Origin: an uncultured Candidatus Saccharibacteria bacterium | GTDB lineage: Bacteria > Patescibacteriota > Doudnabacteria > UBA920 | Assembly: GCA_964483665.1 (NCBI GenBank) | Contig: CAZACP010000004.1 | Coordinates: 7,399 to 71,398, forward strand | Direction of reading: 5' to 3' | DNA length: 64,000 nt | In this document: positions 1 to 63,138 of the stretch, one piece after another | Layout of the letters: the number at the start of each line of letters is the position of its first letter | How positions within the stretch are numbered: the stretch's first letter is position 1 | Notes under the pieces: model-generated | What the model was told of the DNA's origin: nothing | What the model saw: the letters and a program-made list of their open reading frames with translations, nothing else | Databases searched by the model: none | Made by a program: the position numbers and the translations under genes

Positions 1-974
1 CCGCTCGCGTAGGCTTTAAAGTGTTTGCGCATTATGAAAAAAGATTTTTGGCCGCCCAGCTTTTCCTGAAACAATTTAGCATGCTCAAGAGCAACCGTTA
101 GTCGTTCCTTTACTGATGGTTGATAGTTGTCTTCGCGGAACATCCAGGGAAAGCCAAAAGCGCCTCTTGCTATCATAACTCCGTCGCAGCCTGTTTCTGC
201 CATTCGCGACAAGCCTTCCGTGCGAGACTTAACATCGCCATTGCCAATAATTAAAGTTTTTGATTGTAAAGTATTTCTAACATTAACAGCTTTTTTTACC
301 TCGACCCAACTAGCAGGCACTTTGCTTTTTTCTTGCTTGGTTCTTGCGTGCAAAGTTATAGCCGCCAAATTATGTTTGAGCAAATGTCCTATCCAGATTT
401 CGGTTTCAGGTTTAGAATATCCGGTTCTTGTTTTTACAGAGACCGGCAAACTACCAGCTCCTTTTATGGTTGCTTCGATGATCTCTGATGCCAAAACTGG
501 ATTGCGAATTAAAGCCGCGCACGCTCCTATGCCAATTTCCTTGTCCTGCGGGCAGCCCATATTTATATCTATGCCGTCAAAACCTAAATTCACCATTAAC
601 TTACTCGCTTCATAAAACTTTTCCGGGTCAGTCCCCCATATTTGCGCAACTATTGGCCTTTGATTTTCCGTGTATTCCAAATCTATTTTAAGCCGCTCAA
701 AACCAGTAGGATGCAGTATGCCATCCACATTTATAAACTCAGTAAACATAACGAACGCATTGCCTTTTTTTGTCTCCTCCTCCCCTGGCGAGGGGAGGAT
801 GCCCGATAGGGCAGGAGAGGTTGCTGTGGTCGTGTTATCGTTATTGTTATGAGTAATAGTTTTTACTCCCCCGCTATACTTAGCAAACATTTCCCTAAAC
901 ACCACGTCTGTAACTTCTTCCATAGGTGCTAGACAAAAAATGGGTCTATTAAGTTGTTGCCAAAAGTTAGACAT
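1..974 (-). CDS. dus: tRNA-dihydrouridine synthase (partial; 3' end beyond window start)
   Basis: The minus-strand frame is open from the window edge to an ATG at 972-974. The N-terminus MSNFWQQLNRPIFCLAPMEEVTDVVFREMF matches the LAPMxxVTDxxFR motif of Dus enzymes. It is absent from the ORF track because it has no in-window stop. It contains a roughly 35-aa low-complexity in-frame insert. Confidence 0.8.
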   Translation of the reverse strand, partial: MSNFWQQLNRPIFCLAPMEEVTDVVFREMFAKYSGGVKTITHNNNDNTTTATSPALSGILPSPGEEETKKGNAFVMFTEFINVDGILHPTGFERLKIDLEYTENQRPIVAQIWGTDPEKFYEASKLMVNLGFDGIDINMGCPQDKEIGIGACAALIRNPVLASEIIEATIKGAGSLPVSVKTRTGYSKPETEIWIGHLLKHNLAAITLHARTKQEKSKVPASWVEVKKAVNVRNTLQSKTLIIGNGDVKSRTEGLSRMAETGCDGVMIARGAFGFPWMFREDNYQPSVKERLTVALEHAKLFQEKLGGQKSFFIMRKHFKAYAS

Positions 975-6203: not shown

Positions 6204-6241
6204 CTCTCTCTCCAAGACTTGGAGAGAGCCGGAGAGAGATT
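6204..6241. repeat. Family A palindromic element (CTCTCTCCAAGACTTGGAGAGAG core)
   Basis: It shares its core with the copies at 24627, 45092, 45512 and 63043 and with the intragenic copies. Confidence 0.7.
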
Positions 6242-13569: not shown

Positions 13570-13627
13570 TTGCCTTAAAATTTTCGCCTGGCCCTTTTGC
13601 ACTACTGTACTAGTACAGTAGTGCAAA
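13570..13627. repeat. Family E element with perfect 38-bp palindrome CCTTTTGCACTACTGTACTAGTACAGTAGTGCAAAAGG
   Basis: Read directly from the sequence. It shares the TTTTCGCCTGGCCC leader with 12631. Confidence 0.65.
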
Positions 13628-13631
13628 AGGT

Positions 13632-17175: not shown

Positions 17176-18153
17176 TTACAGCTTCACTATTGCCCTTAAT
17201 TTAGCGGGCTTTGAGCGAGGATTATTTTTTAATTCGTTTTCAGAAGCAGTTACTATTTTTTTGGTTAATATTTTTCCTTGAGGATTTTTGCCACACACAC
17301 ATTGAGGGAAATCTATTGGGCATACGCAGCCTTTACTTAAGCTATTAAAGTATTGTTTTACTATTCTGTCTTCAAGCGAATGGAAGCTTACTATTACTAG
17401 CCTGCCGCCCGGGTTTAAAAGGTCAAAACTTTTTGGCAAAAACTCTTCTAAGGCTTCCAGCTCATGGTTAACCGCTATTCTTAAGGCTTGAAATATTCTT
17501 CTGGCTGAATCATCGGCGCGATGTTTTACAGGCTTAGGAAGTGAATCATGGATTATTTGATAGAGTTCTGTTGTATAGCGGATTTGGCTCTTAGATCTTG
17601 ATTCTTGGATCTTCCTTGCTATCTGGCGGCTAAACTTTTCCTCACCGTAATCGCTAAATATTTTACTAAGCTCCTGTTCGCTTCTGTTATTTAGTAAAAA
17701 ACTTGCGTCTTCGGGTTTAGTTTGATCAAACCGCATGTCTAGCGGCTCTTTTTTCTGAAAGCTAAATCCCCGCCCAGACTGGTCAAGTTCATATGACGAA
17801 AGTCCCAAATCTGCAACAATGCCTGAAATATTATTAAACTCATGTTCTTTTGTTATTTTGTTTATGTTTTGAAAATTGCCGTGCACCGCTATCACTCCCT
17901 CTCCCTCTGGGAGAGGGCCGGGGTGAGGGTGTTTGATATTTGTCCGCCAGTTTGCGGATTGAAATTTGAAATTCTCAATCGCATCCTTGTCCAAATCTAT
18001 AACCAACAACTTGCCGCCCGGAGATATTTTTTGCAAGATCGTCTTACTATACCCTCCTCCGCCTAGCGTCGCGTCGACAAAATTCTCACCGGGCTTAGGG
18101 TTAAGAAAGTAAATAACTTCCTCAAGTAATACTGGAATATGTTCATAATTCAT
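17176..18153 (-). CDS. rsmH: 16S rRNA (cytosine1402-N4)-methyltransferase RsmH/MraW
   Basis: MNYEHIPVLLEEV...DATLGGGGYS and a C-terminal FHSLEDRIVK. It contains an in-frame repeat-derived insert. Confidence 0.85.
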   Translation of the reverse strand: MNYEHIPVLLEEVIYFLNPKPGENFVDATLGGGGYSKTILQKISPGGKLLVIDLDKDAIENFKFQSANWRTNIKHPHPGPLPEGEGVIAVHGNFQNINKITKEHEFNNISGIVADLGLSSYELDQSGRGFSFQKKEPLDMRFDQTKPEDASFLLNNRSEQELSKIFSDYGEEKFSRQIARKIQESRSKSQIRYTTELYQIIHDSLPKPVKHRADDSARRIFQALRIAVNHELEALEEFLPKSFDLLNPGGRLVIVSFHSLEDRIVKQYFNSLSKGCVCPIDFPQCVCGKNPQGKILTKKIVTASENELKNNPRSKPAKLRAIVKL

Positions 18154-24626: not shown

Positions 24627-24670
24627 TTCCCTCTCCAAGACTTGGAGAGGGTTAGGGAAAGGTTGATGAT
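24627..24670. repeat. Family A element (CCCTCTCCAAGACTTGGAGAGGG TTAGGGAAAGGTTG)
   Basis: Matches the cores at 63043 and 6204. Confidence 0.7.
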
Positions 24671-25534: not shown

Positions 25535-26968
25535 TTACCTTTTAAAACTCTTCCCCGGCCTTATGGAAATATCACCATCGTTATCAACTTCCTTAACTCT
25601 CCCAAAACCTACGCTGTCCCTAAATACTTTCCCTGCCTTTAAAACCGGGGCGTAAGACAAAGTAAATTTGCCGTATTTGGCGTTTACAACATCTATCGCG
25701 CGAGTAAGCGAAGCTTTGGCCGTTTGTTTTTTAAACAAAGACTGCTGAAGAATAAAAGGCTTAAGGCCTGCTACGGTAACGCCTATTAATTTACAATTGG
25801 CGATGATTTTATGTATATCGGTATAATTCTTTATAATATGCCTGGCTTCCCAAAATAAATCCCTTGCGTCAAAAATATCGGTAGACAATTTTGCAGAATG
25901 CCCGTAACTGTTATAATCGCCGTCGCGCACATACGCCACCACAATATTGCCCATTAATTTTTTGCGCCTAAGCCTCTCCCCCACCATTTCGCAAAGCTTG
26001 TATAAAACCGGCTCAAAAAATTCCGGCTTTCTGTATTCCTTAGGCAGAGTATACATATGGCCGATTGATTTTATACTTTCATCAAAATTCACTTTTGCTT
26101 TCCAGCTACCGCTTAACTGTCCCATATGGTGAAGGTGATAGCCGTTAATGCCAAACACTCGCACCAGTTTGCTTAAGGGGTAATCGCGCAGCTCTTTTAA
26201 AGTTTTTATGCCAAGTTCGTTTAACCTTTTTTCCTGCCTTTTGGCTATACCCGGTATGTCGGTAAGTTTAAGACGAGTATAAAGATCTTCTTTGGTTAGA
26301 TTTAAAACCCCATTTGATATTTGAAATTTGATATTTGAAATTAGCACTATTCCATCCGGCTTTTTTAAATCACTCGCAATTTTTGCTAGGAGTTTGTTCT
26401 CCGCAATACCTATGCTGCAAGTTAAATAATCCCCCACTTCTTTTTTCATTCGTTTTTTTATTTCCACAGCTACCCTAACCGCTTCTTGCCAAGGATTGGC
26501 CAATAAATAATCTTTAATTTCTGCCATATAAAAATATGGGTGTTCTATATTTTGAAATTTGGATTTTAAAATTTGTCCGCCAGCTGGCGGATTATTTAAA
26601 AATTTAAAATTTAAAATTGGAAATTTAACATTACAGCTTGCTGTAATGTCCACATACGCTTCATCTATGCTGGCCGGCTCAACAAAATTGCTGTAGTCCC
26701 TTAAAACTTTTAAAAACCGGCGATGATACTCCCTGTAAGCATCGGCCCTTGTATGCACCAAAATAATTTTAGGATACAGCTTTTTAGCTTCCCAGACCGG
26801 CGTGCCGGTCTTTATGCCCCAGCGCTTGGCTTCTATGCTGGCGGCAATAATAATGCCGCCCAAATGTTCGCACACGCCTAAAACCTTGCCGCGGTACTCT
26901 TTATTGTCTTGCTGCTCCACCGAGGCAAAATAGCTGTTCATATCTAAATGCAAAATTACATTTTGCAT
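25535..26968 (-). CDS. dinB: DNA polymerase IV (Y-family)
   Basis: MQNVILHLDMNSYFASVE...SIDEAYVDIT...CSIGIAENKLLAKIAS. It carries two in-frame repeat-derived inserts. Confidence 0.85.
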   Translation of the reverse strand: MQNVILHLDMNSYFASVEQQDNKEYRGKVLGVCEHLGGIIIAASIEAKRWGIKTGTPVWEAKKLYPKIILVHTRADAYREYHRRFLKVLRDYSNFVEPASIDEAYVDITASCNVKFPILNFKFLNNPPAGGQILKSKFQNIEHPYFYMAEIKDYLLANPWQEAVRVAVEIKKRMKKEVGDYLTCSIGIAENKLLAKIASDLKKPDGIVLISNIKFQISNGVLNLTKEDLYTRLKLTDIPGIAKRQEKRLNELGIKTLKELRDYPLSKLVRVFGINGYHLHHMGQLSGSWKAKVNFDESIKSIGHMYTLPKEYRKPEFFEPVLYKLCEMVGERLRRKKLMGNIVVAYVRDGDYNSYGHSAKLSTDIFDARDLFWEARHIIKNYTDIHKIIANCKLIGVTVAGLKPFILQQSLFKKQTAKASLTRAIDVVNAKYGKFTLSYAPVLKAGKVFRDSVGFGRVKEVDNDGDISIRPGKSFKR

Positions 26969-27471: not shown

Positions 27472-27720
27472 TTTTTCCTTCTCCTTGTTGTACGATACAA
27501 AACCCGTCCCAAAGAATAACAAAAAAGTTATTCTCAAGGACGGGTTGATGAAGTTTCATCAGTTTGCCGCGGTACCACCTTGCTTTCCTAAAACTTAGGA
27601 CTCTTTTTACCGGATTTTACGGCTCGGGCAACCGTGCGGGATATTCCCCCGCCAGCGTTTTGGTGTGCGAAACCAAATCTTTAACTGCTTTATACTATTA
27701 TTCCGCCAAAGGCGGATCCG
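27472..27720 (-). promoter_or_regulatory. Putative structured 5' leader with terminator/attenuator hairpin (riboswitch-like arrangement, class unknown)
   Basis: On the minus strand the hairpin is cccgtccttgagaataac-tttttt-gttattctttgggacggg followed by ttttg, 25 nt before the RBS. The GC-rich upstream segment has several short hairpins. Confidence 0.3.
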
Positions 27721-27788
27721 CCTTTGGCGGAATTTTAGCTTAGTTTACCACTTACAAAAATTCTGTCAATAACTTTGAATAACCAAAG

Positions 27789-27880
27789 ACAAAATTTTAG
27801 TGTTCGACTTCATGGAGAACCTAAAATTTTATCTTAAATACTCAATATTGTTCTCCACGAGGTCGAACAATATTCCGGTT
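27789..27880. repeat. Family H element (AAAATTTTAGTGTTCGACTTCATGGAGAACC + inverted partial copy)
   Basis: Same family as 42511-42552 and 42893-42964. No gene is enclosed. Confidence 0.6.
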
Positions 27881-32018: not shown

Positions 32019-33746
32019 TTAAGATGATAACTGCCTAATATCTATAATTCTTAACTTTAATTGCTTATTCCCGTTCCATTCATCTTGCAATAATTCACAG
32101 GCTAAATCTAACTCTTGGCCTATTTGTAAACTGCTGTCTTTAGGCCCAAAATTAAAAGCGATGCAGGAAATTTGTCTGTTGCCTAAAGAAATTTTCATTT
32201 GCAAATGCTGTGCTTTTTGTCCCACAGCCCGCTTACTTAATATTTTAGCATTTTTCAGCAAAAATTTTGGTTTCGGGTTGCCAACCCCAAAAGGCTCTAA
32301 GGAAGCAATCAAGTTGTAAGTTGTAAGTTGTAAGTCTTCGGAGGAAAGTTCTGCGTCAATATTTAAAACAGGCCCGTCATCTTCTTCCATATTCTTTTCC
32401 GCAAAATCCAAAACGCTTTGGTAAAATATTTCAAAATTTTCCGTTTGCAAGGTAAGCCCCGCCGCCTGCTTATGCCCGCCATAGCGGATTAAATGCTGGC
32501 CGGAATATTTTAAAGCCTCAACTACATTAAATTCCCCCGCGCTTCTGGCCGACCCGGTCGCTTCAAACTCCCCCTTCTCCAGCACAATTGTGGGTTTATA
32601 AAATTCTTCGGCTAATTTGCCCGCAACTAACCCCACAACGCCTTTATGCCAACTTTCCCCCATTAACACCAAAACCTTCCTGTGAAGTATTCCTTGGGCT
32701 TTTTCTCTCGCTTCGCTCATTATCCGCGCTGTTATTTCCTGCCTTCGCAAATTTATTTCTTCAATATTTTGAGCTTGAATTTTTGCCTTTAAGGGATCGT
32801 TTTCTAACAAAAGTTCCAGGGCAACATTAGCGTGTTCAAGCCTTCCAGCCGCGTTTATCCTTGGTGCAATTACAAAACCTAAGGAATAAGTATCCAGCGG
32901 CTGCTTTGCAGGATCCAGCTTTGCTAAATCCATTAAAGCCCTAAGCCCAACCCACTTTGTTTTAGCTAAAACTTTAAGGCCATACTTAACAAAAATTCTA
33001 TTCTCGCCTATAAGCTTATGACAGTCAGCCACTGTGCCTATAGCCACAAGGTCTAATAGCCACTTTTCCCACCCTTGGGATGATTTCGGATTTCGTCCGC
33101 CAGCTGGCGGATCGGATTTCGGATTTTGCAGCAATGCCTGAGCGAGTTTAAAAGCCACGCCGACCCCAACAATTTGGTCATCCGGATAATTATCGTCTTG
33201 ATTTTTAGGGTTTATAAGCGCTAAAGCGTTTGGTAAATTTCCAATAATTTCATGGTGGTCGGTAATAATTAAGTCTATGTTATTTTCCTTGCACCATTCT
33301 GCGGCATCTACAGAATTTGTGCCGCAGTCCACGGTAATTATTACTTTTGAACCATGTTCTTTAATTTTTTTTAAGGCGTCTAAATTTACCCCGTACCCTT
33401 CCAAAAAACGGTCGGGTATATAACTTTCACAGTCCGCGCCCAAATAATTAAAGGCTTGGCGCAAAACCGCATTAGCGGTTATGGCGTCTGCGTCATAGTC
33501 GCCGTAAATAGTAATTTTTTCTTTATTCTCTATTGCCTGCCATATCCTGTTAACGGCTTTTTCCATATCGCGGAATAAAAACGGGCTATTAAGCCCTGTA
33601 GTATAGTCCGCGTTAATAAATTTTTTTATTTCTTCCGGTTCCTTAAGGCCGCGATCAAAAAGCAATTGCCTTAAAAGGACCGGGTAATCTTTATAAACTT
33701 CTTCCAGTTCTGTCGGAATATTGGGTTTTAATTTCCAAATTTTCAT
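32019..33746 (-). CDS. recJ: Single-stranded-DNA-specific exonuclease RecJ
   Basis: DHH motifs (YGDYDADAITANAVL and IITDHHE) and a DHHA1 domain. It has two in-frame repeat inserts. Confidence 0.85.
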   Translation of the reverse strand: MKIWKLKPNIPTELEEVYKDYPVLLRQLLFDRGLKEPEEIKKFINADYTTGLNSPFLFRDMEKAVNRIWQAIENKEKITIYGDYDADAITANAVLRQAFNYLGADCESYIPDRFLEGYGVNLDALKKIKEHGSKVIITVDCGTNSVDAAEWCKENNIDLIITDHHEIIGNLPNALALINPKNQDDNYPDDQIVGVGVAFKLAQALLQNPKSDPPAGGRNPKSSQGWEKWLLDLVAIGTVADCHKLIGENRIFVKYGLKVLAKTKWVGLRALMDLAKLDPAKQPLDTYSLGFVIAPRINAAGRLEHANVALELLLENDPLKAKIQAQNIEEINLRRQEITARIMSEAREKAQGILHRKVLVLMGESWHKGVVGLVAGKLAEEFYKPTIVLEKGEFEATGSARSAGEFNVVEALKYSGQHLIRYGGHKQAAGLTLQTENFEIFYQSVLDFAEKNMEEDDGPVLNIDAELSSEDLQLTTYNLIASLEPFGVGNPKPKFLLKNAKILSKRAVGQKAQHLQMKISLGNRQISCIAFNFGPKDSSLQIGQELDLACELLQDEWNGNKQLKLRIIDIRQLSS

Positions 33747-33749
33747 TGA

Positions 33750-33830
33750 GTAGTTGGTAGTTGGTAGTTGGTAGTTGGTAGCCCAAATTGCTCCGGCTAC
33801 TTACTACTTTACTACCTACTACTTACTAAA
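33750..33830. repeat. Family D element: (TAGTTGG)4 array - spacer - (CTACTTA)n array
   Basis: Read directly from the sequence. The second copy is at 62515-62590. Confidence 0.65.
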
Positions 33831-42510: not shown

Positions 42511-42552
42511 GCAAATAATAGTGTTCGACCTTGTGGAGAACCTATTATTTGC
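42511..42552. repeat. Family H element (solo unit GCAAATAATAGTGTTCGACCTTGTGGAGAACCTATTATTTGC)
   Basis: 10-bp flanking stem around the conserved core. Confidence 0.6.
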
Positions 42553-42879: not shown

Positions 42880-42892
42880 TGCTTAAAAATTT

Positions 42893-42964
42893 TAGTGTTC
42901 GAGCTTGTCGAGAACCCAAAATTTTACGTACTTAATAGTATCACAAGGTCGAATAATATTAAGT
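42893..42964. repeat. Family H element (direct copy plus inverted partial copy)
   Basis: ttttagtgttcgagcttgtcgagaacccaaaatttt ... tcacaaggtcgaataatatt. Confidence 0.6.
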
Positions 42965-45091: not shown

Positions 45092-45131
45092 TTCCCTCCC
45101 CTCCTAAGGGGAGGGATTAAGGGAGAGGTTG
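45092..45131. repeat. Family A element (CCCTCCCCTCCTAAGGGGAGGG ATTAAGGGAGAGGTTG)
   Basis: Read directly from the sequence. Confidence 0.65.
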
Positions 45132-45135
45132 TATT

Positions 45136-45501
45136 TTAAAACCCGCATGCTTCTTTTATTTTACTTAAAACTCCTTGAATATTTGTGTCTATTTCATTAT
45201 TCCAAAATCTTAAAACTTTGTAGCCTATTTTTTCTGCGTACTGTTGTTTTCGCTTATCGTAAGCCGATATTTCTTGCTCGCTGTGCTGTCCTCCGTCTGC
45301 CTCCACTAAGAGCATTTTCTCTTTACAACTAAAATCATAAATATACTGTCCAATTTGCATTTGACGCTTAAATTTTAACCCATAAAACCTACCAGCTCTT
45401 AAATAATACCAAAGCTTGCTTTCCCAAGGAGTCTGATTTTTTCTTAGGCTTCGGGAATTGGTTAAATATGGCTCTGGTATAACTCTTTTGGCAGTATCCA
45501 T
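45136..45501 (-). CDS. DUF559 endonuclease-domain protein (Vsr-like fold)
   Basis: YGLKFKRQMQIGQYIYDFSCKEKMLLVEADGGQHS...YKVLRFWNNEI. Confidence 0.75.
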   Translation of the reverse strand: MDTAKRVIPEPYLTNSRSLRKNQTPWESKLWYYLRAGRFYGLKFKRQMQIGQYIYDFSCKEKMLLVEADGGQHSEQEISAYDKRKQQYAEKIGYKVLRFWNNEIDTNIQGVLSKIKEACGF

Positions 45502-45511
45502 ATGTTTTTAG

Positions 45512-45620
45512 TCTCTCCCCTTTTAAGGGGAGATGTCACGAGTGTATCCGAGTGACAAAGAGGTTGTATACTACATCTACTGCAACCTCTCCCTAACCCT
45601 CTCCTTAAAAGGAGAGGGTA
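45512..45620. repeat. Family A composite element (4 hairpins: CTCCCC/GGGGAG, GTCAC/GTGAC, GAGGTTG/CAACCTC, CCCTCTCC/GGAGAGGG)
   Basis: Same stem set as 63043-63138 in inverted orientation, but with different loops. Confidence 0.7.
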
Positions 45621-53237: not shown

Positions 53238-53285
53238 TCATTTTTGTCATTTTTGTCAATTATTTAATTTTTGTCATTGGTTTTA
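53238..53285. repeat. Family G tandem TTTTGTCATT motifs
   Basis: tcatttttgtcatttttgtcaattatttaatttttgtcatt. Confidence 0.5.
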
Positions 53286-54857
53286 TTCAATTATTTCCCC
53301 GCCAAAAATTTTCAGCGCGTCACTTAAAACCGCAACTGGGTTTTGCCCTTCCGTAATTTTGTCAGGCAATTCTCCAACAATGCCCAAATTTTTACCGCTA
53401 ACCTCTGTTATTTCCTGGGTAATAAAATTTAAGTTTTTTTCAATAGTTTTTTTATCAAACTGATATTTTACGCTTATTACAATTTTTCCGTTATTTACGC
53501 CAATTATTTGGGCTGCCTTAAGCATACTACCTAGGGGGCCGTTTTTGTCTTTAATTCTAAGAACGACTTTTGGCCAAAAATCTAAAACTTCTTTCAAACT
53601 AACATTTTGGTCAAGCCGGCTTAAAATTTCGCTTTGCGGTTCTAAATCAGGCTTTATAGACTCTTGATTTTGCACTTTGATAATCGGCTGTTCGGTTACT
53701 TCTGTTTTTTCCCTTTGTGGTGCTGGAATTATATTATTTGGCTTTTTTTTTAAAGCCCCTTCAATCGCGGCAAGCAAAAGGGGTATTTCAGGACTGGGAG
53801 CGCCTTGCAGATCTTTAAACGACTTTAAAAACAGCCGGATTATAAAAATAATCTCGCTAATGCTTAAATTCTGTAAAACCCCCTCATTCTGCCCTGTAAT
53901 TTTTTTAACCATTAAGACTCTTAAGTGTTCTAAGAAATCTTTGTTAAAAGCGTTAAAATCAACTCCGGCTTCCAGCAAACGGTCAAAATATTCCGGAATT
54001 TCATTGGCCTTTCCTTCAGAAATAAGCTCTGTAAGTTCAGCTAACAGTGCTGTGTCCGTGATTCCTAAAATTGTTCTAATGTCGCCCAACGAAGTGCTGT
54101 TCCCCAGAGTTGAAATCTTGTCTAAAATAGAAAGCGCGTCGCGCATTCCGCCGCCCGCGTTTTGGGCGACTAAATCTAAAACTTCTTCCGGGTAGCTTAA
54201 ATTCTCTTTGTTTACAATATTTTTTAAATGCTCTTTAATATCTGCCGCTGAATATGCTTTAAAATCAAACCGCTGGGTGCGGGAAATTATAGTAGCCGGA
54301 ACTTTTTGAATTTCCGTGGTAGCCAGAATAAATATAGCGTGTTTGGGAGGTTCTTCTAAAGTTTTTAAAAGCGCGTTAAAAGCGCCTTTGGAAAGCATAT
54401 GCACTTCGTCTATTATAAATACTTTATATTTGCCTAAGGTTGGAGAAAATTTAACGTGGTCAATAATATCCCTGACATTGTCTACCCCGGTATTGGAAGC
54501 CGCGTCTATTTCTATTAGGTCAATAAAGTTGTTGTTTTCAATTGCCTTGCAAACACTGCACTCCCCGCACGCATCCCCCAAAGCACCAGGCGAAGCCTGT
54601 ACATTATTTTTCTCCCCATCTGGGGGGAGATGTCCGGCCGACAGGGCGGATAGAGAGGGTTGATTATTCAGACAGTTAACGCTTTTTGCGAATATCCTAG
54701 CCACGCTGGTTTTTCCAACTCCTCTGCTGCCAATAAATAAATAAGCATGGGCAAAAGCACCCCCGGCGATTTGGTTTTTAAGGGTTTTAATTATTGCTTT
54801 TTGACCAACAACCTGAGCAAAAGTTTGAGGTCTATATTTTCGGTAAAGTACAGCCAT
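53283..54857 (-). CDS. dnaX: DNA polymerase III subunit gamma/tau
   Basis: MAVLYRKYRPQTF...GSRGVGKTS...DEVHML and a zinc module CGECSVC. A repeat-derived insert sits next to the zinc module. Confidence 0.85.
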   Translation of the reverse strand: MAVLYRKYRPQTFAQVVGQKAIIKTLKNQIAGGAFAHAYLFIGSRGVGKTSVARIFAKSVNCLNNQPSLSALSAGHLPPDGEKNNVQASPGALGDACGECSVCKAIENNNFIDLIEIDAASNTGVDNVRDIIDHVKFSPTLGKYKVFIIDEVHMLSKGAFNALLKTLEEPPKHAIFILATTEIQKVPATIISRTQRFDFKAYSAADIKEHLKNIVNKENLSYPEEVLDLVAQNAGGGMRDALSILDKISTLGNSTSLGDIRTILGITDTALLAELTELISEGKANEIPEYFDRLLEAGVDFNAFNKDFLEHLRVLMVKKITGQNEGVLQNLSISEIIFIIRLFLKSFKDLQGAPSPEIPLLLAAIEGALKKKPNNIIPAPQREKTEVTEQPIIKVQNQESIKPDLEPQSEILSRLDQNVSLKEVLDFWPKVVLRIKDKNGPLGSMLKAAQIIGVNNGKIVISVKYQFDKKTIEKNLNFITQEITEVSGKNLGIVGELPDKITEGQNPVAVLSDALKIFGGEIIE

Positions 54858-61220: not shown

Positions 61221-62510
61221 TTAAAAGCCCTCATAGTCATGCATTGTCAACTGTGCTTCGATTTTCTTGATTATTTCTATAACCACGGACACCACAATCA
61301 ATAACGAAGTACCGCCCAAAGTTAAGGCCTTGGTTCCGGTTAAATTTTGGGCAACTAGAGGCAGAATAGCAATAATTGCTAAAAATACTGCACCGGCTAA
61401 AGTAATGCGGTTAAGCACAGAAGACAAATAGTCAGCAGTTTGAGCTCCGGGCCTAAGTCCCGGAATGAAGCCGCCATTTTTTTGCACATTTTCGGCAATT
61501 TCCTGAGGGTTAAAGACTACGGCAGTATAAAAATAAGTAAAGCCTAGTATCATAAGGAAGTAAACAATGCCGTAAAACCAGGTGCCGGTGTCATTAAACA
61601 AGGCAATGGTTTTTTGCGCATAGTTAGCAATAAGTGCGCTTTTTGCATTTACAAAGAACTGGGCTATCATTGCGGGAAACAGCATTATGGAAATAGCAAA
61701 AATTATAGGAATAACTCCGGCTTGGTTAAGGCGCAAAGGCAAATGGGTATTAACGCCGCCAAAAAGCCTGTTGCCCCTAACGCGCTTAGCGTAAGCAACC
61801 GGGATATTGCGCTGAGCCTCTGTTACCAAAACCACTCCGGCAATAACGGCTAAGAATACCAAGACAAAGCCGACAATAGTAGGAACTGCGTCCGGATTAC
61901 CCTGATAAATTTGGTAAGCTTGGGAAATGGCGCTCGGGACTCTGGATACAATACCGGCAAAAATAACCAAAGAAATTCCATTGCCAATGTCGAATTCAGA
62001 CATAATTTCACCAATCCACATTATTAACATAGTGCCGGCAGTTACAGAAAGCAAAACCAAAAACCATTGAAAAGGAGAAAAAGTTCCTAAAATTGATCCG
62101 GCTCCCTGGCTGGAAAGAAGCCTAATGGTGCCAAAAGCCTGAAGCGGGGCAAGCGGAATGGTTAAATAGCGGGTGTACTGGTTAAGCTGAGCCCTGCCGG
62201 CTTCCCCACCTTCCTTTTGCATTTCAGCAAAAGAAGGAACTATTATGGTTAAAAGCTGCATTATAATGCTGGCAGTAATGTACGGGCCAACGCCAAGCAT
62301 GGCAATAGAAAAATTAGTCAAACCTCCGCCGGAAAAAACATCAAGCAAATTTAAAAACTGACTCTGCTGAAAAAAAGCTTTAAGCCCGGTTGGGTCTATA
62401 CCCGGAATGGGTATGTGAGTTAAAACCCGCGTAACTAACAAAAGACCAAGCACAATTAAAATTTTGTTGCGTAGGTCTTTGGTTTTCCAAATAAGTAGGA
62501 TTTTGTTCAT
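61221..62510 (-). CDS. secY: Preprotein translocase subunit SecY
   Basis: 429 aa with 10 TM helices. It follows rplO. Confidence 0.9.
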   Translation of the reverse strand: MNKILLIWKTKDLRNKILIVLGLLLVTRVLTHIPIPGIDPTGLKAFFQQSQFLNLLDVFSGGGLTNFSIAMLGVGPYITASIIMQLLTIIVPSFAEMQKEGGEAGRAQLNQYTRYLTIPLAPLQAFGTIRLLSSQGAGSILGTFSPFQWFLVLLSVTAGTMLIMWIGEIMSEFDIGNGISLVIFAGIVSRVPSAISQAYQIYQGNPDAVPTIVGFVLVFLAVIAGVVLVTEAQRNIPVAYAKRVRGNRLFGGVNTHLPLRLNQAGVIPIIFAISIMLFPAMIAQFFVNAKSALIANYAQKTIALFNDTGTWFYGIVYFLMILGFTYFYTAVVFNPQEIAENVQKNGGFIPGLRPGAQTADYLSSVLNRITLAGAVFLAIIAILPLVAQNLTGTKALTLGGTSLLIVVSVVIEIIKKIEAQLTMHDYEGF

Positions 62511-62514
62511 TATG

Positions 62515-62590
62515 TAGTTGGTAGTTGGTAGTTGATAGTTGGTAGCCGAACATTGCCTGACTACTTACTACTTACTACTTCACTAATCGC
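62515..62590. repeat. Family D element (TAGTTGG array - spacer - CTACTTA array)
   Basis: It overlaps the last 8 codons of rplO. Confidence 0.65.
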
Positions 62591-63042: not shown

Positions 63043-63138
63043 TCCCTCTCCAAGACTTGGAGAGGGTTAGGGAGAGGTTGAAAATTATTAACCTCTCTGT
63101 CACCTTTCGGGTGACATCTCCCCAAGCTTTCGGGAGAA
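63043..63138. repeat. Family A composite element in the rpsE-rplO spacer (where rpmD/L30 would normally be)
   Basis: ccctctccaagacttggagaggg ttag ggagaggttg..aacctctct gtcacctttcgggtgac atctcccc.. Confidence 0.7.

Follow-up and report, generated by a model that had tools for sequence, protein, structure and literature searches.

How does a conserved housekeeping protein come to carry a palindromic repeat within its reading frame, and what allows the repeat to stay there? This question is raised by the left end of a 64,000-nucleotide stretch of contig CAZACP010000004.1 (the window, meaning the whole stretch of DNA that was analyzed) from an uncultured member of the Patescibacteria, where the gene for a tRNA-dihydrouridine synthase (Dus) carries a short GC-rich hairpin element. 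We found that a palindromic repeat does lie in frame inside this conserved and apparently intact gene, as the sequence-only reading of the locus had claimed: the repeat is dispersed, it falls in a surface loop, and the open reading frame (ORF) is uninterrupted. We think it probable that a selfish or neutral repeat of the BoxC/TM type (TM, triplex motif) is tolerated here in a permissive Dus loop that has turned into a hotspot of turnover. The features of the Dus region are as follows.

1..974, minus strand: Dus gene, with its ATG at 974; it leaves the window at the left end, and 324 of ~357 codons are seen.
762..872, minus strand: net in-frame insert, G35 to G71 (37 amino acids [aa], 111 nucleotides [nt]), relative to empty-site orthologues that read YGKPDVMFTEF.
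773..823, minus strand: BoxC/TM-type element of 51 nt, on the gene strand CAACCTCTCC + TGCCCtatcGGGCA + TCCTCCCCTcgccAGGGGAGGA + GGAGA, encoding ATSPALSGILPSPGEEE.
778..799, no strand: main hairpin TCCTCCCCT/ggcg/AGGGGAGGA, a perfect 9-bp stem with a 4-nt loop, forming triplex-motif blocks 1 and 2.
800..813, no strand: nested mini-hairpin TGCCC/gata/GGGCA, in the position of "loop 2", which is TTA or CCG in the canonical form.
814..823, no strand: third block GGAGAGGTTG, a purine "tail" that is mirror-like to the purine arm.
824..869, minus strand: AT-rich low-complexity tract GVKTITHNNNDNTTT, made of ATAACN-like short repeats, 35% GC and separate from the repeat element.

The repeat element in the Dus gene

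The identity of the host gene is supported by sequence and by structure prediction. The minus-strand translation of 974..1, MSNFWQQLNRPIFCLAPMEEVTDVVFREMFAKYSGGVKTITHNNNDNTTTATSPALSGILPSPGEEETKKGNAFVMFTEF…, is stop-free over 324 codons; it reproduces the peptide given by the sequence-only reading, which has to be corrected in that the gene lies on the minus strand. The ORF matches the Pfam Dus family (4e-54) as well as solved Dus structures. An AlphaFold2 model (multiple sequence alignment of 93 homologues) had a predicted local distance difference test score (pLDDT) of 90 and a predicted template-modeling score (pTM) of 0.87, and it matched the Dus structures 1vhn/3b0u with Foldseek template-modeling scores of 0.74 to 0.78. 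Every column that is invariant across the 93 homologues is retained, and the conserved catalytic-site columns and the TIM-barrel fold are present. Public gene calls (database entry P0001) start this Dus at M18 (MEEVTD…); the conserved N-terminus MSNFWQQLNRPIFCLAP, of which strand β1 is a part, identifies ATG 974 as the true start.

Alignment to Dus orthologues delimits the insert. When 5.8 billion proteins were searched, thousands of Dus proteins of the Patescibacteria/Doudnabacteria type were obtained; many of these are empty-site orthologues of the form …FREMFAKYGKPDVMFTEF…, in which no segment separates helix α1 from strand β2. The insert that had been placed at 770-875, with a length of ~35 aa, is therefore real; its net extent is 762-872 (37 aa), and the repeat element itself occupies only 773-823. 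In the AlphaFold2 model, the insert sits between helix α1 (residues 24 to 34) and strand β2 (residues 74 to 82), and residues 36 to 73 are coil with pLDDT values of 43 to 57, the remainder of the barrel being modeled with confidence. The insert is thus predicted to be a disordered α1→β2 surface loop. In a TIM barrel, the α→β loops lie on the face opposite the active site and its catalytic β→α loops; from this known topology, the insert would lie on the noncatalytic face of Dus.

The element stands out from its surroundings in composition and in folding. It has 67% GC versus 39% for the window, and five of its six frames are stop-free. Both the hairpin and the motif to which the sequence-only reading had drawn attention are found in the encoding DNA: CTCCCCTGGCGAGGGGAG lies at 780-797 on the plus strand, and GAGAGGTTG, which occurs four times in the window versus 0.23 times expected, lies at 815-823. 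Folding of the insert with ViennaRNA, which models hairpins only, predicted two neighboring hairpins closed by a short outer stem, with z scores of -5.2 (DNA) and -4.4 (RNA); this was equaled by 0 of 200 shuffles. The AT-rich tract at 824..869 probably represents an older layer of the loop; the tandem-heptamer inserts of P0017 and P0022 (see below) may be compared with it.

The architecture of the element corresponds to that of a known repeat. The BoxC/PIT/"TM" intrastrand triplex motif has the consensus CCCTCTCCC-loop-GGGAGAGGG-(TTA|CCG)-GGGTGAGGG, with loops of 1 to 6 nt and with a loop 2 of TTA in type A and of CCG in type B (Holder et al. 2015, PMC4666352). The three blocks of the triplex motif are present in the Dus copy (TCCTCCCCT / AGGGGAGGA / GGAGAGG), its G/C-rich arms agree with the arm consensus (CCCTCTCCC/GGGAGAGGG), and 6 of the 7 positions of the third block, GGAGAGG, agree with a mirrored block 2. 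The nested mini-hairpin layout is common to the Dus copy, to two further copies in the window (one in DnaX and one at 45514), and to the Dus gene of L011, which comes from an unrelated genome. By these sequence features, we class the Dus copy as a nested-hairpin variant of the BoxC/PIT/TM family. Rfam held no family for the element: a search of the whole window at the gathering threshold, and of 700-1000 in E-value mode, returned one tRNA and chance-level matches.

The sequence-only reading had likened the insert to the Rickettsia palindromic elements (RPEs). The likeness holds for behavior, which is analogous, but the element is not a member of that group and belongs instead with the BoxC/PIT/TM triplex-motif family. 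True descent from RPE families would account for a repeat that is palindromic, repeated, in frame, and found in surface loops; RPEs, however, are ~100 to 150 bp long and reside in AT-rich Rickettsia (Ogata et al. 2000, 2002, summarized in PMC10969869), while this element is 51 nt long, has 67% GC, and fits the BoxC/TM consensus. We give such descent next to no chance.

We also considered whether the insert is an artefact. Repeats often break or chimerize metagenome assemblies, and many of the contigs that carry TM repeats with DUF559 genes (see below) are short. The exact Dus protein, however, was recovered on no fewer than 24 contigs, assembled by different pipelines (JGI, ENA, and Logan), and the five that were checked had the same insert DNA. 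We regard assembly error as excluded because these contigs are independent. A decaying gene is likewise at odds with the uninterrupted ORF, with the retention of the invariant columns, and with the confident model outside the loop, so that an artefact or pseudogene is, taken together, very improbable. Other candidates were set aside. An inverted repeat of 12 nt (743-754/838-849) was judged to be due to chance, one of its arms being conserved coding sequence. An intein, an intron, a diversity-generating retroelement, and programmed bypass were dropped since the segment is stop-free, lacks catalytic motifs, and differs in length between relatives.

Turnover of the Dus loop among relatives

To follow the loop beyond the window, we compared it among strains, the nearest relative, and more distant homologues. 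Three strain variants that fall in the 90%-identity cluster of the window protein retain the insert and show only frame-preserving point changes. The nearest relative (P0124, from locus L001), which is ~90% identical, carries an unrelated hairpin insert, SGQTVTSYELRVTSAARHPLPVTRNYNPFV, at the same site; when the window was aligned to the L001 DNA, the flanks were 83 to 93% identical and the interior of the insert was unalignable. Among 117 homologues, 41 were empty at this site and 76 (65%) had inserts of 8 to 54 residues and of many unrelated kinds. Pairs with 94% core identity bear unrelated inserts, and for 27 of the 117 sequences the nearest neighbor is in the opposite state (empty versus occupied). 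Empty and occupied alleles were also interleaved in a neighbor-joining tree of masked Dus cores, which, in view of the conserved S…NxFV junctions (see below), we did not trust for counting independent gains. The long inserts are strongly palindromic in DNA (minimum free energy down to -83 kcal/mol). When each Dus insert was compared with its own contig by blastn-short, the search was informative for L010 only, the insert of which has a 37-nt copy, 94.6% identical, elsewhere on the contig. Collectively, these alignments indicate that the α1→β2 loop of Dus behaves as a fast-turnover hotspot across Patescibacteria. The comparisons that the sequence-only reading had proposed came out in its favor: empty sites exist among relatives, and no orthologue beyond the species-level cluster carries the segment, the insert of the closest relative being unrelated.

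The α1→β2 loop is not the only place in Dus that holds such repeats. TM-type repeats are found in L025 before LPVSVKTR and in the linker from the barrel to the helical domain (385-419, 766-794), and they lie in frame before LIIGNGD in L009, L013, L015, L018, and L022. In the Dus of L022, the first site is empty and the site before LIIGNGD is occupied. All of these additional sites are α→β loops or linkers. In Patescibacteria sequence totaling ~445 kb, we counted 34 such hairpins, of which 16 are within ORFs; 12 of those 16 are in Dus genes, so that Dus hosts them unusually often. Model bacteria can dispense with Dus, which would fit relaxed constraint.

These comparisons bear on the idea that the insert was acquired for a function, whether through its peptide or through an mRNA hairpin selected for tRNA or partner binding, translation regulation, or mRNA stability. 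Such selection could explain why the insert is identical in at least five independent assemblies, why strain variants show only frame-keeping point changes, and why the site is occupied in 65% of homologues; it sits poorly with the unrelated inserts of close relatives and with the 41 empty sites among 117 homologues. Moreover, the segment is predicted to be disordered and, by TIM-barrel topology, to lie on the noncatalytic face, it has no Rfam match, and the repeat also occurs in unrelated proteins. We therefore consider a selected function quite unlikely.

The window and L001 are syntenic, and the differences between them extend beyond the Dus gene. The orthologous L001 spacer lacks the TM copy of 6205-6239, and the window has a 650-nt insertion (1011-1669) relative to L001 (reverse complement) 2749-2801. 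A simple terminator hairpin of L001 is duplicated in the window around 1011-1669, with a mini-palindrome nested in the loop of each duplicate; this nesting of palindromes in terminator hairpin loops is the same phenomenon as that seen in loop 2 of the Dus element. The insertion also holds an ORF (1057-1443) of 128 aa with a hydrophobic N-terminus and no Pfam match.

The dispersed family and the DUF559 nuclease

We next describe the repeat family in the window. A composite pattern, consisting of AACCYTCY, then up to 45 nt, and then a perfect C/T-arm hairpin, was found at six window sites (778, 24629, 45093, 45584, 54611, and 63044) and was found 0 times in 100 dinucleotide shuffles. Three looser relatives of the family lie at 6206, 17897, and 45514. 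The family thus has at least nine copies in the 64 kb, which are mostly intergenic, with three in frame in housekeeping genes. In the alignment of the copies, CAACCTCTCCC is followed by TAA, CGG, or a nested mini-hairpin and then by CCCTCYCC, a loop, and GGRGAGGG. Loop 2 is TTA at 63044, 24629, 45093, and 45584 and CCG at 17897 and 6206, and the loops of these copies are within the TM definition. Besides the Dus copy, the family and the endonuclease gene that it surrounds are located as follows.

6205..6239, plus strand: family copy with a CCG loop 2, intergenic.
17897..17929, plus strand: copy of the canonical type B, CCCTCTCCCtctGGGAGAGGGccgGGGTGAGGG, lying in frame within RsmH (…HPHPGPLPEGEG…).
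24629..24665, plus strand: type-A copy with a TTA loop 2, intergenic.
45093..45131, plus strand: type-A copy on the 3' side of the DUF559 gene, separated by 4 nt from its stop codon and in the orientation of that gene.
45136..45501, minus strand: gene for a DUF559/Vsr-like PD-(D/E)xK endonuclease of 121 aa (PF04480, 4e-37; also REase_MTES_1575), the only DUF559 gene of the window.
45514..45566, plus strand: family copy lying 5' of the DUF559 gene, its loop 2 occupied by a nested mini-hairpin.
45583..45619, minus strand: type-A copy in the opposite orientation to 45093-45131, located 5' of the DUF559 gene.
54611..54662, plus strand: nested-hairpin copy of the family, lying in frame within DnaX (…NNQPSLSALSAGHLPPDGEK…).
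63044..63080, plus strand: canonical type-A copy, intergenic.

Strong GC-rich hairpins in the window are intergenic in 12 of 14 cases, although 84% of the window is coding. In the DnaX-like ORF (53283..54857, minus strand), the copy adds 27 residues (NNQPSLSALSAGHLPPDGEKNNVQASP) relative to E. coli γ/τ, which separate the Walker region "NC" from the Zn-module CGxCxxC. Compared with T. maritima MraW, the RsmH-like ORF (17176..18153, minus strand) is lengthened by ~15 residues through its canonical copy. Coding copies have five of six frames free of stops, while intergenic type-A copies (loop 2 TTA/TAA) have only two to four open, which is the pattern expected if a selection filter acted on random insertions. 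An in-frame palindromic element had been called unexpected for this kind of genome; with in-frame copies in DnaX and RsmH and a Dus loop hotspot across Patescibacteria, the case is not isolated. Within the RsmH-like gene, we also observed an adjacent palindrome, GTCCGCCAGTTTGCGGAT, which together with the type-B motif spans 17897-17959; both are in frame, and they jointly encode FKFQSANWRTNIKHPHPGPLPEGEGV.

The DUF559 gene is wedged between the genes for transketolase and ribulose-phosphate 3-epimerase. Three family copies surround it, and the outer two (45093-45131 and 45583-45619) are inverted, bracketing the gene in the manner of terminal inverted repeats. We analyzed 80 metagenomic DUF559 loci, searching ~190 nt from the gene for hairpins. 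GC hairpins with C/T arms lay upstream of the gene in 60 of 73 loci and downstream of it in 54 of 74, and 43 of 67 loci had them on both sides; the upstream flank fit the reverse complement of the downstream flank better than its direct sequence in 46 of 67 loci, and one locus has a perfect terminal inverted repeat of 46 nt. When hairpins were defined more strictly, one was present at 95 of 122 DUF559 gene ends versus 18 of 830 control ORF ends (Fisher p ~1e-86), and both ends carried one in 39 of 61 DUF559 loci (64%) versus 1 of 415 control ORFs (0.2%; Fisher p ~1e-40). Hairpins were present at 0 of 16 ends of other ORFs in the same DUF559 loci. DUF559 homologues often have an N- or C-terminal read-through that translates the element (…NPSPALPSEGERG, …TLPSPGEGKKEETK), and these extensions resemble the Dus inserts. 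No further DUF559 genes were found by tblastn in 33 Dus loci, and the papers on DUF559 that our literature search found make no mention of a repeat association.

In E. coli K-12, a degenerate TM hairpin contains the ycjD (DUF559) stop codon (L117, NC_000913.3 1351040-1351830), and a canonical TMECO type A, together with a partial duplicate of the ycjD 3' end, lies ~170 nt downstream. The full ycjD region is present in 3346 of 5426 E. coli genomes; the other 2080 are without the arrangement and have other genes there. No clean empty site was found among the E. coli genomes that lack the region, which hold a different gene island instead.

The bracketing of DUF559 genes suggests that the nuclease, whose activity we infer, mobilizes the repeat. 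On this analysis, BoxC/PIT/TM repeats could be nonautonomous partners of DUF559, with the hairpin or triplex being nicked or cleaved and solo repeats thereby copied into permissive protein loops, of which Dus would be the hotspot; we put this forward tentatively, as a possibility that is less likely than not. Two points speak against it. The large control set came from Patescibacteria loci of other genomes than the DUF559 loci, and the within-locus control is small (16 ends). In addition, TMs have been reported without an association to mobile elements (Holder et al. 2015, PMC4666352).

Several other repeats were observed in the window. A second palindrome family, TCCGCCAGYTGGCGGA, is read as (N/D)PPAGG and lies in frame in a DinB-like ORF (26562-26592 in 25535-26968) and in a RecJ-like ORF (33082-33112 in 32019-33746), and also in RsmH; a further site at 1528-1545 is intergenic and nested in a terminator hairpin loop. 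A 68-nt element has two copies, 84% identical (33742-33809 and 62506-62573), in which a (GTAGTTG)n heptamer run is followed by the complementary CTACTTACTAC. An unrelated palindrome family, AAAATTTTAGTGTTCGA…GAGAACCTAAAATTTTA, has three copies (27791-27831, 42512-42552, and 42886-42926). Finally, two very long perfect hairpins, with stems of 17 bp and 15 bp, are intergenic (13593-13630 and 27700-27733).

Origin of the insert and comparison with known systems

The insert might instead have arisen in place, through slipped-strand expansion of native short repeats and template-switch palindromes, in which case the likeness to the family would be a convergence of low-complexity purine/pyrimidine sequence. 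The longer Dus inserts of L016 and L018 lend themselves to this explanation, since they are palindromes built from an AAATCGG-like heptamer unit, as does the left tract of the window insert, which is a short-repeat tract. It fits the 51-nt core far less well: the core shares its CAACCTCTCC tail, its arm sequence, and its nested-hairpin layout with unrelated loci of the window and with L011 and L025, the composite pattern occurred in none of the 100 shuffles, and the core has 67% GC in a genome of 39% GC. As an account of the element, an origin in place is unlikely.

We favor a tolerated repeat in a loop of rapid turnover, and the following observations count against that reading. Occupied alleles nearly always have S…N-x-F-V where empty ones have G-K-P-D-V. 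This junction pattern could reflect one ancient insertion followed by internal turnover or recombination instead of many hits, or it may alternatively reflect co-adaptation of the junction, and the neighbor-joining and nearest-neighbor analyses do not separate a single ancient insertion from many independent ones. The short inserts of P0017/P0022 (L114:35-300, L116:301-560) are tandem AAATCGG-like heptamers resembling expansions of the native AAGCCGGAT, which suggests that slippage rather than mobile DNA produced part of the variation. At the Dus site, we recognized no target-site duplication, the element itself being palindromic, and we found no parent insertion sequence within the window and no clean empty/filled pair; the transposition step was unobserved. 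Loop 2 of the Dus copy, the mini-hairpin, spans 15 nt, beyond the 1 to 6 nt that define TMs, and blastn-short of the Dus insert against the rest of the window gave no second copy, the loops being different. The family membership of the Dus element is accordingly proposed from its architecture and short conserved blocks.

For a tolerated repeat, we envisage the following course. The repeat would spread as selfish or unstable DNA, and a copy within a gene would persist only when its length is a multiple of three, it is stop-free, and it sits in a permissive loop of a weakly constrained gene. The Dus copy can be tolerated because its GC-rich purine/pyrimidine runs are stop-free in five of six frames, because its length is a multiple of three, and because its loop is disordered and on the predicted noncatalytic face. 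A loop that already holds junk DNA would then act as a neutral landing pad, open to slippage, to the nesting of palindromes, and to replacement. More weakly, the bracketed DUF559 endonuclease may supply the break or nick that mobilizes the repeats.

The in-frame invasion of proteins by palindromic repeats, which had been deemed a peculiarity of Rickettsia, also occurs in small-genome Patescibacteria, with a repeat that is shared with E. coli. The Dus inserts provide a natural map of permissive TIM-barrel sites, all of which are α→β loops or the interdomain linker. They also explain part of the protein length variation and the "low-complexity" segments of the Candidate Phyla Radiation (CPR), with effects on annotation, clustering, and structure prediction. 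BoxC/PIT/TM repeats were already known in the 1990s, and to our knowledge no way in which they spread has been established; DUF559/YcjD is a testable candidate for that role and for why these repeats mark unstable loci. Should the partnership with DUF559 prove true, Patescibacteria would have an RPE-like layer of protein evolution with Dus as its hotspot. Our search for literature on in-frame palindromic elements in CPR, Patescibacteria, or Parcubacteria found nothing relevant.

Among known systems, the BoxC/PIT/TM repeats are the closest; work reportedly associated with them also includes that of Bachellier and that of Hoyne and Maher from 2000. The order of C/T arm, loop, G/A arm, short loop 2, and mirror-like G/A tail is the same, as are the arms (CCCTCTCC / GGAGAGGG); the window copies show exactly both loop-2 types, TTA and CCG, and in both settings copies form inverted pairs and are tied to locally rearranged, hypervariable DNA. 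In E. coli, TMs are reported to be always intergenic and to mark loci that are rearranged between strains (PMC4666352). Here, in contrast, copies lie in frame inside Dus, DnaX, and RsmH, a 15-nt mini-hairpin replaces the 3-nt loop 2 in the Dus copy, and the family brackets a DUF559 gene.

With RPEs, the element shares a palindromic, repeated nature and an in-frame position in unrelated housekeeping genes, at surface sites compatible with the fold, where it adds a peptide. Frequent in-frame insertion is described as a specialty of Rickettsia RPEs in a review of MITEs (transposable elements of the miniature inverted-repeat type; PMC10969869). The present element is set apart by its description, being 51 nt rather than ~100 to 150 bp and unrelated in composition, host phylum, and sequence family; in addition, one loop here is repeatedly hit or replaced by several element families.

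The DUF559 arrangement resembles the REP/REPIN-RAYT system (REPtron), in which a single-copy, nuclease- or transposase-like gene lies between inverted hairpin repeats that are otherwise dispersed as solo copies or doublets. The enzymes differ, with a Vsr-like PD-(D/E)xK DUF559 protein here in place of a Y1 HUH (IS200/IS605-like) transposase, and neither a GTAG nor a CGTC tag is present here. Elhai et al. are said to have described in 2008 cyanobacterial small dispersed repeats and MITEs in conserved genes and within heptamer tandem repeats. The sequences and hosts of these repeats differ from ours, and we know of no Dus-hotspot link described for them. The resemblance lies in tiny hairpins that are nested in other repeats, sometimes in conserved genes, and that co-occur with tandem heptamers.

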